From: an uncultured delta proteobacterium
GTDB taxonomy: Bacteria > Desulfobacterota > Desulfobacteria > Desulfobacterales > UBA11574
Length of the DNA: 64,000 nt
Direction: 5' to 3'
Assembly (NCBI GenBank): GCA_963790095.1
Contig: CAWBNO010000029.1
Coordinates: forward strand, 12,418 to 76,417
Numbering within the stretch: the first letter of the stretch is position 1; each line of letters starts with the position of its first letter. A program made the translations under genes and the position numbers. This document shows, piece by piece, positions 9,995 through 19,568 of this stretch. The notes beneath the pieces were generated by a model. That model was not told the origin of the DNA, did not search any database, and worked only from the letters and a program-made list of their open reading frames with translations.

Positions 9995-12031
9995 TTAGGC
10001 TGCTTTTTCGATTTTCACCGCACAGACCTTAAATTCCGGAATTTTGGCAATTGGATCAAACGCTGAATTGGTAAGTATATTGGCCGGGGTTTCCGCAAAA
10101 TGAAACGGCACGAAAAGCACGCCAGGATTAACCATATTGCTTACCCTGGCAAGGATTTCCATGTCGCCCCTGCGGGTGGAAAGCTTCACCGTATCCCCGT
10201 CTTTTACAGCCAGGCTCTCGGCGTCTTTAGGATTAATCTGCACATATCCGGTCTTTTGTTCGGTATCCAGATGCTGGGATGCCCGGGTCATGGTTCCGGT
10301 ATGATAATGGGCGAAGTGACGGCCGGTGGTGAGAAAATATGGGTACTCTTCATCCGGCATTTCAGCCGGGTCAAGATACTCGATGGCATGGAACAAACCT
10401 TTGCCCCGGGTAAATTGGTCCTTATGCAGAAACTGAGTTCCTGGATGTTCGGCATTCGGGCAGGGCCACTGAAGGCCGTTCAGTCCCAGTCTTTCATAGG
10501 TCATGCCGCCGTAACTCGGCGTCACGGTGGTCATTTCCTTAAAAATCTCTTCAGGATGTTGATAGTTCATTTCAAGGCCCATGGCGGTAGAGAATCTGGA
10601 TATGATTTCCCAGTCGTTTAACGTATCTCCCATGGGATCAATAGCCTTGTTGACTTTCATACAACGACGTTCGGTATTGGTAAATGTGCCGTCCTTTTCA
10701 GCAACCGACACCGCAGCAAAGACCACATCCGCGTTCTCTGCCGTTTCAGACAGGAAAATGTCCTGACAAATCAAAAGATCGAGATTCTCCATTGCCTTCG
10801 TTATATGGTTCTGGTTCGGATCACTTAATTTTGGATTCTCTCCAATGATATAAAGTGCCTTTAATTTTCCGTCGATCATGGCTTGAATCATGTCGGTGAT
10901 GGTGTAGCCCACTTTGTCTGAAAGCGTTCCGCCCCAGGCTGTGGAGAACTTCTCATTGTTTGCGGGAACATTCACCGGCTGATAGGCCGGAAAAACATTC
11001 GGCAAGCCGCCCATGTCACAGGCACCCTGAACATTGTTCTGCCCCCTTAGGGGGTTGACGCCGCCGCTCTTAACGCCGACGTTGCCACAGAGCATGGCAA
11101 TATTACAACAGGATTTGACATTATCCACACCGGTGGTGTGCTGGGTGATCCCCATGGTATAAAGCAATGCCGCCGGAGAATTTGTGGCATAGAGTTCCGC
11201 CATTTTTTCAAGGTCGCTTTGTGAAACACCTGTTATGGTTTCCACCTTGTCCGGCGTATAGGTTTCAATCACCGATTTGAATTCATCAAAACCCTCGGTT
11301 CTCTCCTCGACATATTTTTTGTCGTGCCAGTCATTTTTCAAAATGATATGCATCAACCCGTTGAGCAAAGACACATCACTCCCGAGTCTATGGGTTACAG
11401 CAACATCCGCAAAACGGGCCATCTGGATATTTCTCGGATCGGCCACAATGAGCTTGGCGCCTTTTTCCTTTGCCTTGAATATGCGTCTGGCAATCAAAGG
11501 ATGGCACGCTGACGTGTTCGAACCGATGATAAAGATACAGGCAGAATCTTCGAATTCGGCGATTGAATTGGTCATAGCTCCACTTCCAAATGCTGCGGCA
11601 AGACCTGCCACTGTGGAGGAATGTCAGAGACGGGCACAGTGATCGACATTGTTGGTTCCGATGACCGCCCTGGCAAACTTCTGAGCCAGGTAATTTTCTT
11701 CATTGGTAATTTTTGCGGAAACCAGCACACCGACACTGTCCGGACCATAGTCTTTGATGATGGCCTTGAGCTTGTCGGCCGAAGTTTGGATGGCCTCATC
11801 CCATGTGGCTTCCTGCAAATTACCATTCTTCTTTATCAGCGGAGATTTAAGACGCTTATCGCTGATCACATGTTCATGGAGGTTCCAGCCCTTTATGCAT
11901 AGCTTCCCTTCGTTTACAGGATGGGTCTTCATCGGCAGGGTATCGACGAGCCGGCCGTCCATCACCTGAAAAAGGACACCGCAACCTGTTCCGCAATATG
12001 AACATACTGAGGGAATTATCTTGTAATCCAT
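9995..12031 (-). CDS. fdhF: selenocysteine-containing formate dehydrogenase catalytic subunit (FdhF/FdhA type, cytoplasmic); UGA 11624-11626
   Basis: CSYCGTGC...LCIKG, DHCARL-U-HSSTVAGL, PLRGQNNVQG; SECIS-like GGCAGGTCTTGCC after UGA; joins ORFs 11624-12031 and 9995-11611 in frame. Confidence 0.93.
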
Positions 12032-12114
12032 AGGTATCGCTCCTTGATATTATAAAATTAAGATTGAGACAAAACGTATCACTTCTAAGCCGTTACCCGT
12101 ATAGGGCATAAGGA

Positions 12115-12912
12115 TCATATGGGTTTGAGTTCCAGTGTTACCTCGTCGCCGAGCATGTTGAATGGAGATTGATCCGCACGGATTCCGGTTTTATACTCGA
12201 ATACATCCGAAACTATTTCATTGACCTTGCGGTAAAGAAGGCGCAAAGAAATATTTGCCGGGCAGGCATCCTCGCACAGGCCGCAGTCGATACAACGTCC
12301 GCCCATATGAACCGCCCGGACAAGATGAAAAATCGGGACTTCGGGGGGAATGGTCCCGGTGGCGATTAGGTCTGGATGCTCAAGGCTGCATTCCTTGCAA
12401 AAGCAGACGGGACAGATATCACGGCATCCATAACATTTTATACATTTCTGAAATTCATACATCCACCGATCAAAGCGGTCTTTCTGACTGAATGCTTCAG
12501 CGGCTTCTACGTCCATGTTATTGTCCATGCCGACCATTTTTTTCAGATATCCTGCCGGTTCAGGCTCGAGGTAGGAGCAATCCCCATGCTCCTTGAGTTT
12601 GGAGGGGCAGCAATTAACGCTGATGGTCGCTATATTGTCCGGATTCAACTGATTCCAAACATAAAGAACATTCAAAGCCCGCTGGTTGCAGTCACGGGTC
12701 AAAAGCCCTATTTTCAGATCCGGATGCTCAGCTGAAATCTTTGTGGCCATCTTTTCAAGGGAATACCGGGCGTTACCGACGATTAATTCGTCGATTTCAT
12801 CGATATTTTCTTTGGTAAAGCAATGGGGCAACGGATGTCCTTGCACCATCTTATATCCTAAGAATATGTCTACTCTATCCTGTTCAAGCAACTCTCTTAC
12901 TTGTTCTTGCAT
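12115..12912 (-). CDS. 2x[4Fe-4S] protein, FdhB/FlxB-like
   Basis: CIKCYGCRDICPVCFCKEC and CIDCGLCEDACP; lies between mvhD and fdh. Confidence 0.8.
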   Translation of the reverse strand: MQEQVRELLEQDRVDIFLGYKMVQGHPLPHCFTKENIDEIDELIVGNARYSLEKMATKISAEHPDLKIGLLTRDCNQRALNVLYVWNQLNPDNIATISVNCCPSKLKEHGDCSYLEPEPAGYLKKMVGMDNNMDVEAAEAFSQKDRFDRWMYEFQKCIKCYGCRDICPVCFCKECSLEHPDLIATGTIPPEVPIFHLVRAVHMGGRCIDCGLCEDACPANISLRLLYRKVNEIVSDVFEYKTGIRADQSPFNMLGDEVTLELKPI

Positions 12913-12913
12913 A

Positions 12914-13396
12914 TCATCCTCCCTCTACGCTCACGGCATTTTGTGCGGCTTCACATGAACTCGCGATGGCGGACAGGTCAAAATCGCCGGATAAAGGGCT
13001 TGGGCCCAATGATTTAATCTTTTCCGTAAAAGCGGTGACCACCTGAACGAACTTCTGGGCCTCTGCCGAAGATATCCAGTCCAGGTGTAAACGGTCTTCC
13101 AATCCTATAAAGCTCAAAAGTTCTTGCAGAAACGTAATCCGTTTGATTGTCATGTAATTACCATACAGGTAATGGCAGTCGCCGACATGTCACCCACCCA
13201 CCAGGACACCGTCGGCGCCGCTTTGGAAGGCTCTCAAAATATGGTGGGGCGATACGGTCGCCGAACACATGACACGGATGGGCCGAATATTGGGCGGATA
13301 TGCAAGCCGACTCACACCTGCCAGATCGGCTGCGCCATATGCACACCAGTTACACATAATAGCGATTATTTTGGGCTCAAATCTATCTTCTTTCAC
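12914..13396 (-). CDS. mvhD: MvhD/FlpD [2Fe-2S] subunit, selenoprotein (UGA 13190-13192)
   Basis: [37 protein letters not shown]; hairpin TGCCAT..ATGGTA 12 nt after UGA; joins two ORFs in frame. Confidence 0.92.
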
Positions 13397-18588: not shown

Positions 18589-18607
18589 GGCGCTGGCCTC
18601 TTAAATT

Positions 18608-19120
18608 TTATTCATACTGATCTAAAATTTTGTTCACTTGATCGTAAGAAATGTGACCATGCATGTCTTCATTGATTTTGATCACCGGTCCAAGGCTGCA
18701 ACAACCGATACACCGCACCGTTTCTAAGGTAAAACGCTGGTCCTCGGTCGTTTCCCCGTCACAGAGGTTCAAGGCCCCCTCAATTTTTTCGCGAACTCTT
18801 TCCCCGCCTCTAACATGGCAGGCCGTACCGAGACAGATCGATATGATATTTCTGCCTCTGGGCTCAAGGCTGAACGTGCTGTAAAATGTCGCCACACCGT
18901 AAATCTGGCTGTAGGGTACGTCAAGTTTGGTGGAAAGATAAGCGAGGGCCGGCCGGGGTAGAAAGTTGTAACGCCGTTGTATCGCCTGAAGAATCATAAT
19001 CAGATTTTCTTTGTCGTTATTAAATTCATTGGCGATGATATTATCAAGTTCCATATAATCGACTTCTATGGATGGAACACTTTCAAACTGAACGCTGTTA
19101 ATCTGAGCTGCCTGACTCAT
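18608..19120 (-). CDS. NuoE/HydC(BfuC)-like [2Fe-2S] subunit
   Basis: VATFYSTF, CLGTACHVRG, RCIGCCSLGP. Confidence 0.93.
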   Translation of the reverse strand: MSQAAQINSVQFESVPSIEVDYMELDNIIANEFNNDKENLIMILQAIQRRYNFLPRPALAYLSTKLDVPYSQIYGVATFYSTFSLEPRGRNIISICLGTACHVRGGERVREKIEGALNLCDGETTEDQRFTLETVRCIGCCSLGPVIKINEDMHGHISYDQVNKILDQYE

Positions 19121-19166
19121 ATGCTCACCCTCCCTAATGAAACAAGATGAATTGGCATGAATTATG

Positions 19167-19568
19167 TTAAGCTTTAACCTGATTTTTGGGCATCGGTATG
19201 TTTACAACCGGACAGTTTTCAACGCAGTTCCCACAGCCCGTGCAGAGATCCATATCGATACTACGCGCCCGTTTTTTAACCTTTACTTTAAAGTTTCCGG
19301 CGGATCCCTCCACAGACTCCAGATCCGCGTATGTGATGACTTCAATATTCAGGTGCCGGCCGACCTCGACCAGTTTGGGAGAGATAATTCACATGGCACA
19401 ATCATTGGTGGGGAAAGTTTTGTCCAGTTGAGCCATAACCCCGCCAATGGAAGGGGATTTTTCGACGAGATAGACATAATATCCCGAGTTGGCAAGATCC
19501 AGAGCAGATTGCATCCCGGCAATCCCTCCACCTAAAACCAGAACCGATCCGATTACATCTTTGGGCAT
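19167..19568 (-). CDS. stand-alone HdrA N-terminal fragment, selenoprotein (133 aa; UGA 19389-19391)
   Basis: [35 protein letters not shown]...[19 protein letters not shown]...[18 protein letters not shown]; not in the ORF track. Confidence 0.88.

Follow-up and report, generated by a model that had tools for sequence, protein, structure and literature searches.

We analysed a 64,000-nucleotide (nt) stretch of contig CAWBNO010000029.1 from an uncultured delta proteobacterium of the Desulfobacterales (assembly GCA_963790095.1), hereafter called the window. From 19568 down to 9995 its minus strand carries seven co-directional genes, in the order hdrA-N fragment, nuoE-like, nuoF-like, a gene for a 1080-amino-acid (aa) fusion protein, selenocysteine (Sec)-containing mvhD, an Fe-S gene and Sec-containing fdhA. 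The main finding is that hdrA is divided in this operon: a 133-aa gene encodes the beginning of HdrA and the remainder lies in the fusion protein, with the nuoE- and nuoF-like genes and a NuoG-like domain in between. The split is not a product of decay. The gene for the fragment is genuine and under selection, and the arrangement is both common and conserved. Judging by homology, it is also probable that the product of this gene completes the large subunit within one complex.

The hdrA-N gene (19167..19568, minus strand) is missed by standard open reading frame (ORF) calling because of an in-frame TGA; the frame is open only when the TGA at codon 60 is read as Sec (U), and it ends at a TAA stop. 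An earlier inspection of the letters alone (the sequence-only reading) had recognised the start of HdrA in this gene, absent from its ORF track, and had placed the resumption of HdrA about 190 aa into the 1080-aa protein. Both proposals are borne out. On the NCBIfam HdrA2 profile the fragment covers positions 138-256, and residues 195-505 of the large protein cover positions 257-562. On the solved HdrA of M. thermolithotrophicus (5odc_A), fragment residues 8-124 align to residues 145-260, and the large protein, whose match starts at 194/195, aligns over residues 194-451 to residues 259-511. The alignment that had been suggested as a check therefore makes the two parts abut, at 259/260 of 5odc_A, with no gap or overlap there or on the profile. 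Further along the large protein, residues 525-756 align to 5odc_A residues 2-234 and residues 947-1076 to residues 517-648. As the two parts abut exactly, fragment and large protein together make one permuted tandem HdrA; rather than a single-polypeptide HdrA, the locus encodes one that is split and permuted. The domain map likewise upholds the idea of a nuoE/nuoF/NuoG-like cassette inside the HdrA ferredoxin insert. The linker between the BfuA-like domain that ends this cassette and the resumption of HdrA is ∼20 residues long (175-195).

The features by which HdrA is recognised are distributed over the two polypeptides. The Rossmann FAD loop and the Cys57/Sec60 pair are in the fragment, as is the CxxCxxCxxxCP motif that comes first in the ferredoxin insert. 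The GxGxxG loop of the fragment (G13-G18) is invariant, and there are Pyr_redox/FAD Pfam matches; a TrxR-like FAD domain with this loop is obtained only by joining the two polypeptides. C57 and U60 align to 5odc_A 194 and 197, the HdrA Cys/Sec pair adjacent to FAD. The remainder of HdrA module 1 (residues 195-520; 15101..16078, minus strand) supplies the second half of the insert and the rest of the TrxR-like FAD domain, in which the [4Fe-4S] motif C326, C340, C344 and C345, plus K350, occupies invariant columns. The Cys motifs of all the HdrA cluster domains (insert, N-terminal, C-terminal ferredoxin and TrxR [4Fe-4S]) are present and invariant. The eight insert cysteines, also all invariant, are split 4 + 4, with C109, C112, C115 and C119 in the fragment and C228, C236, C239 and C243 in the large subunit. 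Each cluster of a classical two-cluster ferredoxin draws ligands from both motifs, and, given this fold and the 4 + 4 division, both insert clusters would be ligated across the subunit interface. The need of FAD domain 1 and of the insert's two clusters for both polypeptides is thus supported by homology, as is the earlier suggestion that the first FAD site is built from two chains.

The second HdrA module (residues 525-1080; 13418..15088, minus strand, stop codon included) is placed by the 5odc_A alignment and by a 6tjr_A match at 669-991. It consists of an N-terminal cluster domain, a TrxR-like FAD domain and a C-terminal 2x[4Fe-4S] domain. It had been described as complete, which proved incorrect: the 5odc_A alignment shows neither an inserted ferredoxin domain nor a Cys/Sec pair in its FAD domain. 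A stand-alone HdrA-N-like gene of 136 aa, of the Cys type (no TGA), was also seen in Desulfatibacillum alkenivorans (L134; G029:C3:27960-28325), just 3' of an mvhD and without NuoE or NuoF, and from this example HdrA may be split in other contexts too.

The claim of three Sec subunits, namely the HdrA-N fragment, MvhD and FdhA, held up, with in-frame TGA codons at U60, U69 and U136. In the fragment (Sec60 codon at 19389-19391), a hairpin resembling a selenocysteine insertion sequence (SECIS), with a 7-bp stem and an AGGU loop, begins 15 nt past the UGA (19356..19373, minus strand). The 18-nt block CUGGUCGAGGUCGGCCGG was identical in 41/41 distinct fragment sequences, third codon positions included; the codons flanking it vary synonymously, and RNAalifold finds the same 7-bp stem. 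The invariance of CUGGUCGAGGUCGGCCGG marks a constraint at the RNA level, which is the strongest argument for a SECIS element. Folded as single sequences, the three UGA contexts had z-scores of -0.2 to -1.4, no better than shuffles. The TGA at the Sec site was found in 22/22 short fragments of one set and 40/40 in loci L051-L130. The genome encodes tRNA-Sec, SelB and SelA (selD lay outside the search), so that the hallmarks of bacterial Sec decoding (in-frame UGA, 3' hairpin, selA, selB and tRNA-Sec) are all present.

In-frame TGA codons have left traces elsewhere. Public predictions of the fragment (P0009, P0011 and P0013) carry W at the Sec site, the TGA having been read as Trp. Sources cited here by PMC or bioRxiv number are quoted from extracts; in one of these, D. 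multivorans lists paired locus tags for each Sec gene (PMC5109826), and the Sec TGA may be why HdrA is annotated as 'two-gene' in older genomes (PMC5109826, PMC2702500).

Conservation of gene order and split point, a check proposed by the sequence-only reading, proved extensive. The order fragment-nuoE-nuoF-fusion is kept in 19/20 fetched loci of relatives, and the full junction region was found widely among 41 same-order genomes (the window's own included). A scan of named genomes gave 596 related stretches, from which 80 loci were kept; 56 carry the fusion, 39 with at least 3.3 kb upstream, and in 35 of these 39 the fragment, nuoE and nuoF lie directly 5' of the fusion. The four exceptions are L085, L097, L109 and L116. 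In L097 (Desulfatibacillum alkenivorans), hdrC-hdrB-fragment-nuoE are found ∼22 kb off on the same contig. Fragment length is 126-155 aa in 46 paired loci, all of which keep the TGA and the stop position, and in the loci examined residue by residue the fragment ends 5-14 residues past the CPV motif. The dN/dS of the fragment has a median of 0.045 and a maximum of 0.245 (544 pairs, dS 0.3-3), and its identity across relatives is 70-98%, compared with 44-98% for NuoE. The possibility that relatives carry it as a decaying pseudogene is contradicted by the low dN/dS, the kept TGA and stop, and the invariant SECIS block.

The same genes are abundant in wider searches. In a protein database, 4468 HdrA-N-like sequences are short (73-233 aa); the 120 best-scoring ones are mostly 122-154 aa long, some on contigs >1 Mb. 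Among 8000 candidates scored, 3356 fusion protein clusters were found at E<=1e-40, all of them generically named. The window genome itself has a second, paralogous split operon on contig C23 (hdrC-hdrB-fragment-nuoE-nuoF-fusion), whose fragment is ∼75-77% identical to that of the window. Over 5.4 kb, the end of contig C14 (C14:43060-48481) and the start of C23 (C23:1-5428) are 93.6% identical at the nucleotide level, a stretch that takes in hdrB, the split fragment, nuoE and nuoF; the pair represents either paralogous copies of recent origin, two in number, or strain heterogeneity that the assembler has separated. selA lies at G000:C14:39390-40760, a few kb 5' of the C14 hdrCB-split-hdrA copy.

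Metatranscriptome contigs 90-99% identical to the window cover the fragment in four runs from four studies, and two of the four runs bridge to nuoE. The gap between fragment and nuoE is bridged by X16 record 13 (18452-19374) and X15 record 7 (18921-19374); X18 record 31 (19132-19633) spans the fragment and ends 12 nt before nuoE. Contig depth at 19299-19435 was 1067 against flanks of ∼7-11 in X15, and 279 against ∼9-29 in X16, that is, 10-100 times the flanks, with many loose contig ends at 19341-19345. This peak probably reflects many distinct HdrA transcripts with a common FPTNDC/SECIS block.

Relatives also shed light on how the operon arose. At least 14 of the 80 loci carry operons in which an unsplit tandem Sec-HdrA (∼1010 aa, Sec read through) is followed by mvhD, the Fe-S gene and fdhA, and the image of a three-gene cassette inside hdrA is therefore apt. 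A FastTree phylogeny of the HdrA core (residues 195-1080; 79 rows, nine of which, hits of <900 aa or with <850 residues aligned, were dropped) nests the window clade of five split proteins within the formate dehydrogenase (Fdh)-linked unsplit proteins, with supports of 96-100 and apart from the main split clade; on this tree the label 'split' needs at least four changes. The position of the window clade is explained by a switch in sliding identity along the large protein. Residues 195-234 are 0.84 identical to the main split clade compared with 0.47 to the Fdh-linked unsplit group, from about residue 275 on the latter group is mostly closer, and residues 995-1074 are 0.36-0.55 identical to the main split clade compared with 0.68-0.81 to the Fdh-linked unsplit group. 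The fragment of the window is 0.88 identical to split-type fragments and 0.65 to unsplit N-termini.

This switch shows the operon to be a recombinant, with a crossover near residues 265-280 (approximate breakpoint, from sliding identity and tree, at 15821..15868, minus strand). The 5' part, through the second half of the insert, derives from the split lineage; the 3' part of hdrA, along with mvhD, the Fe-S gene and fdhA, derives from the unsplit lineage linked to Fdh. In L042, another Fdh-linked split operon, the core is of the C23 type nearly as far as the 3' end of hdrA, and a second and independent join is tentatively suggested. Split and unsplit tandem hdrA operons were also seen head to tail, at L118:1664-15700 and L101:5082-16000, an arrangement that would favour the kind of recombination inferred for the window.

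A census of 31 fusion loci with at least 4.5 kb downstream shows that the partners of the split core vary. In 18 of them mvhD is followed by Fe-S, Fer4_22 and PyrK-like FAD/NAD genes (one Fe-S gene in 17, two in 1), a set that looks Flx-like. The others include mvhD-FeS-fdhA (3), hdrC-hdrB (2), mvhD with an unsplit hdrA (2) and mvhD alone (2); nothing was recognised 3' of the fusion in 4/31 loci. Some split-core loci carry hdrC-hdrB upstream. Cultured organisms with the split core include Desulfatirhabdium butyrativorans, Desulfonema limicola and Desulfatibacillum alkenivorans, whereas among the loci studied the Fdh-linked type was seen in none that is cultured. The split core thus behaves as a module with exchangeable third ports.

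The genes lying between the two parts of HdrA encode a module of the Bfu type. The NuoE/HydC/BfuC-like [2Fe-2S] thioredoxin-like subunit (170 aa; 18608..19120, minus strand) matches PF01257 at E 7e-48 and the NuoE/HoxE families of NCBIfam. The NuoF/HydB/BfuB-like FMN/NAD(H) subunit (633 aa; 16687..18588, minus strand) has an N-terminal extension, PF01512, PF10589 and a C-terminal two-cluster ferredoxin domain (2x[4Fe-4S]); its residues 27-632 match the bifurcating StnB, NiFe-HydB, HydB and NfnB chains at E 1e-213 to 1e-174, compared with ∼1e-100 for non-bifurcating NuoF and FdsB chains. The domains of BfuB and BfuC are accordingly present, the 'flavobicluster' being judged from domains and not from individual ligand residues. 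Residues 1-190 of the 1080-aa protein (16091..16660, minus strand) form a NuoG/BfuA/BamI-like, type-2-like domain with a [2Fe-2S] cluster and two [4Fe-4S] clusters and without a catalytic domain, in effect a BfuA subunit fused to HdrA. It is recognised by PF13510/Fer2_4 and Fer4, by HoxU, HydA6 and NuoG in NCBIfam and by the structures 9mqx_A and 8a6t_A, and its Cys ligands are invariant in 25 relatives. From this make-up, the NuoEF/BfuA-like module would carry out NAD(H)/ferredoxin bifurcation.

The last three genes resemble the formate-linked arm of methanogen complexes. MvhD (160 aa, GTG start; 12914..13396, minus strand) has a Sec69 codon at 13190-13192 and a TGA at codon 161 that we take as the stop. 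PF02662 (FlpD; E 9e-51) covers residues 10-131 only and spans the in-frame TGA at codon 69, and VhuD is matched in NCBIfam. The gene appears to use UGA both as Sec (codon 69) and as stop (codon 161), and its stop TGA overlaps the ATG of the next gene (ATGA, 12912-12917). The 265-aa Fe-S subunit (12115..12912, minus strand) is FdhB-like, its residues 145-250 matching FdhB residues 268-377, the cluster domain, in the solved Fdh-Hdr complexes (9t1s_M, 8rvu_E and 7bkb_E; E 9e-32 to 4e-25); only Fer4 was found in it by Pfam, with no match to the FrhB-type F420/FAD domain. FdhA (678 aa; 9995..12031, minus strand; Sec136 codon at 11624-11626) scores 854.6 bits on TIGR01591 over residues 9-674, against a cut-off of 666.25.

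At E<=1e-40 the genome yields no FdhA-like match other than this fdhA. As the genome, estimated to be 91.8% complete, also holds CdhC/AcsB, FTHFS and dsrA, the operon most likely provides a sulfate reducer with the formate dehydrogenase for its Wood-Ljungdahl pathway. The FTHFS match (G000:C5:21396-23134) is broken into two adjacent frames, covering profile positions 2-435 and 438-556, possibly through a frameshift or a sequencing error in this Wood-Ljungdahl gene. The 3.8-Mb genome has 29 HdrA-like matches, eight with TGA at the Sec site, and several HdrA-like open frames of 1422-1502 aa may be HdrL-like fusions.

The union of two bifurcation classes in one complex is an established principle, to which this locus adds a variant arrangement. 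HdrA and HydABC/BfuABC had been treated as separate systems in the sequence-only reading, which does not hold, since in class II benzoyl-CoA reductase (BCRII; Bam[(BC)2DEFGHI]2) of Geobacter metallireducens, HydBC-type and HdrA-type modules share a complex (bioRxiv 10.64898/2026.04.10.717634; PMC9304861), BamGHI being joined to BamE via the Sec-MvhD BamF. The permuted tandem HdrA of the window agrees with what has been published on BamE, an HdrA dimer that is fused and permuted and in which one FAD is bifurcating and the other non-bifurcating (bioRxiv 10.64898/2026.04.10.717634). Common to both systems are a Bfu-type NADH/ferredoxin module (there BamGH) with a type-2 BfuA (there BamI, with one [2Fe-2S] and two [4Fe-4S] clusters), a fused tandem HdrA, the relay pair (59/62 in BamE) and a Sec-MvhD adaptor. 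In our locus, however, the cut in the BamE-like protein follows the first ferredoxin motif, with the G/H/I homologues inside the cut; the BamI homologue is fused to the downstream HdrA half; and the catalytic partner is Sec-FdhA with the FdhB-like subunit. No BamB (the AOR-type tungsten subunit), BamC or HdrD-like BamD was found among the seven operon genes, which gave no AOR-type or CCG-domain match. From the published description of BamE, we infer that Sec60 corresponds to Cys62 of its Cys59-Cys62 pair, giving a Cys-Sec relay here in place of Cys-Cys. BamF has >100 residues beyond other MvhD adaptors, in extra domains that bind BamI, whereas the MvhD of the window has 160 aa and FlpD only.

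Other known systems share parts of this plan. With the methanogen FdhAB-MvhD-HdrABC complexes (with Fmd/Fwd; 7bkb, 8rvu and 9t1s) the locus has in common the wiring of FdhA, FdhB cluster domain, MvhD and HdrA, as well as Sec at HdrA position 197, where a Cys-Sec bridge has been seen between FAD and cluster A3 in M. maripaludis (PMC13518236). In methanogen Hdr the inserted ferredoxin domain is the low-potential exit, at which polyferredoxins dock (PMC13518236). The methanogen complexes differ in having a single-polypeptide homodimeric HdrA, an FdhB with the F420/FAD domain, integral HdrBC and no NADH module. HylABC-FdhF2 of Gottschalkia acidurici, which reduces NAD+ and ferredoxin with formate, similarly combines a Sec/W formate dehydrogenase with a NuoEFG-like bifurcating module (PMC9304861), but without HdrA or MvhD and with BfuA as a free subunit with more clusters. 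Bacterial HdrA/MvhD linked to NAD(P)H-binding partners is also seen in FlxABCD-HdrABC (Desulfovibrio) and in HdrL (Desulfobacterium autotrophicum), the latter an HdrA-GltD-type fusion (PMC2702500). Neither of these is known to have NuoE/NuoF inside hdrA or a BfuA fusion, and Pfam and NCBIfam found no glutamate-synthase-like NADH domain, as in HdrL, in the operon proteins. The closest remark in the literature lists nuoEFG-mvhD-hdrA transcription units in Desulfotignum phosphitoxidans (PMC4046663), and a Desulfatiglans study places its discussion of HdrABC-MvhD/NuoEFG in a supplement (PMC13343851). Fission of hdrA at the insert, the BfuA-HdrA fusion, the Fdh link and mosaic evolution were absent from the literature searched, the scope of which excluded supplements and the HdrA(BC)-diversity review.

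On the basis of this homology and wiring, we propose that the seven genes would give one soluble, selenium-dependent redox complex. Its core would be a tandem HdrA resembling BamE and put together from two polypeptides, of which the 133-aa subunit would provide the Rossmann start, the Cys57-Sec60 relay and half of the two-cluster insert, and the 1080-aa subunit the other half of the insert, the rest of FAD domain 1, the terminal cluster domains and a probably non-bifurcating FAD domain 2. The BfuA/BamI-type N-terminus of the large subunit would dock the NuoF/NuoE-like (BfuB/BfuC-type) NADH/ferredoxin module, which would thereby be covalently tied to the ferredoxin insert, the low-potential arm of solved HdrA complexes. 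A third port would consist of FdhA, the FdhB-like Fe-S protein and MvhD, with wiring like that of methanogen Fdh-MvhD-HdrA. FdhA would oxidise formate, whose electrons would pass through the FdhB-like clusters and the MvhD [2Fe-2S] cluster to the FAD of module 1. By analogy (PMC13518236 and the BCRII preprint), the low-potential route may lead from this FAD via Cys-Sec and the cluster of the N-terminal domain to the inserted ferredoxin domain, and from the insert via the fused BfuA domain to a BfuBC core that would exchange electrons with NAD(H) and ferredoxin. The [4Fe-4S] cluster next to FAD is the high-potential exit in HdrA and BamE, and a further high-potential acceptor may take electrons there. 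The whole system may run in either direction. We regard this reaction, in which two bifurcation modules in series would reversibly couple formate/CO2 to NAD(H) and ferredoxin, as a tentative proposal, with the odds somewhat against it.

Several observations count against our interpretation. The scores on the NCBIfam HdrA and HdrA2 profiles lie under the equivalog cut-offs (784.8 vs 1100 and 562 vs 1300 bits). As high-potential partners, neither hdrBC nor bamD is present in the operon or the window; tblastn at 1e-5 found no hdrB or hdrC homologue in the 64 kb, as the sequence-only reading had also stated. In BCRII, the arm fed by the Bfu module is that of the C-terminal ferredoxin domain and MvhD, not the insert (bioRxiv 10.64898/2026.04.10.717634), and the ∼20-residue linker does not decide between an insert-side and a BCRII-like placement of BfuA. 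As HylABC-Fdh illustrates, a Bfu module is enough for a formate:NAD+/ferredoxin reaction, which leaves the presence of HdrA unexplained. The RNA contigs are assemblies of relatives, for which DNA carry-over or separate transcripts are possible, and the mosaic history draws on a tree made by FastTree alone.

It is unlikely, though conceivable, that the complex is wired as in BCRII, towards CO2. NADH and reduced ferredoxin would then be confurcated by NuoEF/BfuA into HdrA, entering via the C-terminal ferredoxin domain and MvhD; HdrA would bifurcate, with FdhA and the Fe-S subunit replacing BamBC as low-potential output and the high-potential electron going to an unlinked acceptor. The parallel of the subunit set with BamE, BamF, BamG, BamH and BamI speaks for such wiring, as do the operon position of FdhA and the Fe-S protein, which is that of the catalytic module, and the organism's Wood-Ljungdahl pathway. 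However, it is the input wiring of methanogen Fdh-Hdr (FdhB to MvhD to FAD) to which the Fe-S subunit and MvhD correspond, and an MvhD of ∼160 aa lacks the extra domains with which the much longer BamF, as described, binds BamI. Reduced ferredoxin alone is already able to reduce CO2, so that the extra driving force seems unnecessary.

We give still less credence to two enzymes in one operon with no joint complex, that is, a split-HdrA/NuoEF oxidoreductase with its own substrates and a separate formate dehydrogenase with its Fe-S partner. The exchangeable partners (18 Flx-like, 3 Fdh, 2 hdrCB and 4 none recognised, of 31) and the recombination of the operon from two sources would be compatible with such independence. 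Yet MvhD, which to our knowledge is known only as an adaptor to HdrA, sits between the two parts. The mvhD-FeS-fdhA trio also follows the unsplit HdrA in those loci (at least 14 of the 80) where hdrA is whole, and this retained linkage to HdrA is what the solved Fdh-MvhD-Hdr complexes would predict. Finally, the idea that the 1080-aa protein works alone, the 133-aa ORF being either an assembly artefact or what is left of a disrupted, decaying hdrA, for which one may cite the absence of this ORF from standard ORF calls and a CxxCxxCxxxCP motif of the large protein's own at 163-174, just before HdrA resumes, can be dismissed with near certainty: the fragment is under purifying constraint (dN/dS 0.045, 544 pairs) and better conserved than NuoE, the TGA and stop are kept in 46/46 paired loci with an invariant SECIS block, the gene is retained even when unlinked from the fusion, the same arrangement recurs in many independent assemblies, and without it FAD domain 1 loses its GxGxxG loop and Cys/Sec pair.

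To return to the proposed joint complex, a broader and more speculative version can be given, which we consider doubtful. In this version the split core would be a portable 'double-bifurcation' cassette, in which the Bfu module is hard-wired to the insert arm rather than, as in benzoyl-CoA reductase, to the MvhD input and the clusters of the insert are cross-ligated between subunits; it would spread among hdrA paralogues by homologous recombination and be plugged into Fdh, Flx-like or HdrBC ports. If so, the Wood-Ljungdahl formate dehydrogenase here would be a three- or four-substrate energy-coupling machine.

The arrangement matters beyond this genome. Thousands of Desulfobacterota sequences from sediments and wetlands carry the split core under the name 'FAD-dependent oxidoreductase' or 'HdrA', and, as its Sec subunit is missed by ORF calling, these complexes may be mis-modelled in metabolic reconstructions. 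Electron partitioning at the sole formate dehydrogenase of a Wood-Ljungdahl sulfate reducer bears on energy conservation in complete oxidisers. The locus is also a natural experiment, in which one fusion of genes anchors the Bfu module to HdrA at a defined position and one fission divides the bifurcating FAD domain, and the split core could help to show which HdrA arm talks to what. Benzoyl-CoA reductase being the first, it would be the second and independent case in which the two module classes are arranged in series.

The borders of the operon are as follows. Upstream of hdrA-N lies an intergenic leader of ∼300 bp (19569..19878, minus strand) with a TTGACA..TATAGT pair (15-nt spacer) and, just 5' of the 133-aa ORF, an AAGGAGG ribosome-binding site that we regard as strong. 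A promoter in this leader is unproven, because our sigma-70 scan did not list the TTGACA..TATAGT site and gave no more matches than shuffles. At the other end, a 19-bp perfect palindromic hairpin with a T-run (9926..9966, strand unassigned) lies between fdhA and the convergent fmt gene. From the consensus scan it is likely a bidirectional terminator marking the end of the operon; terminator-like sites across the scan were no commoner than in shuffles, and this palindrome after fdhA was the sole noteworthy one. Directly 5' of the operon, the minus strand at 19879-26881 encodes a double-receiver response regulator, a sigma-54 activator, and hybrid PAS and HAMP/PAS histidine kinases. A similar double-receiver regulator precedes the nuoF-fusion pair in Desulfatibacillum alkenivorans (L097:4529-5893).

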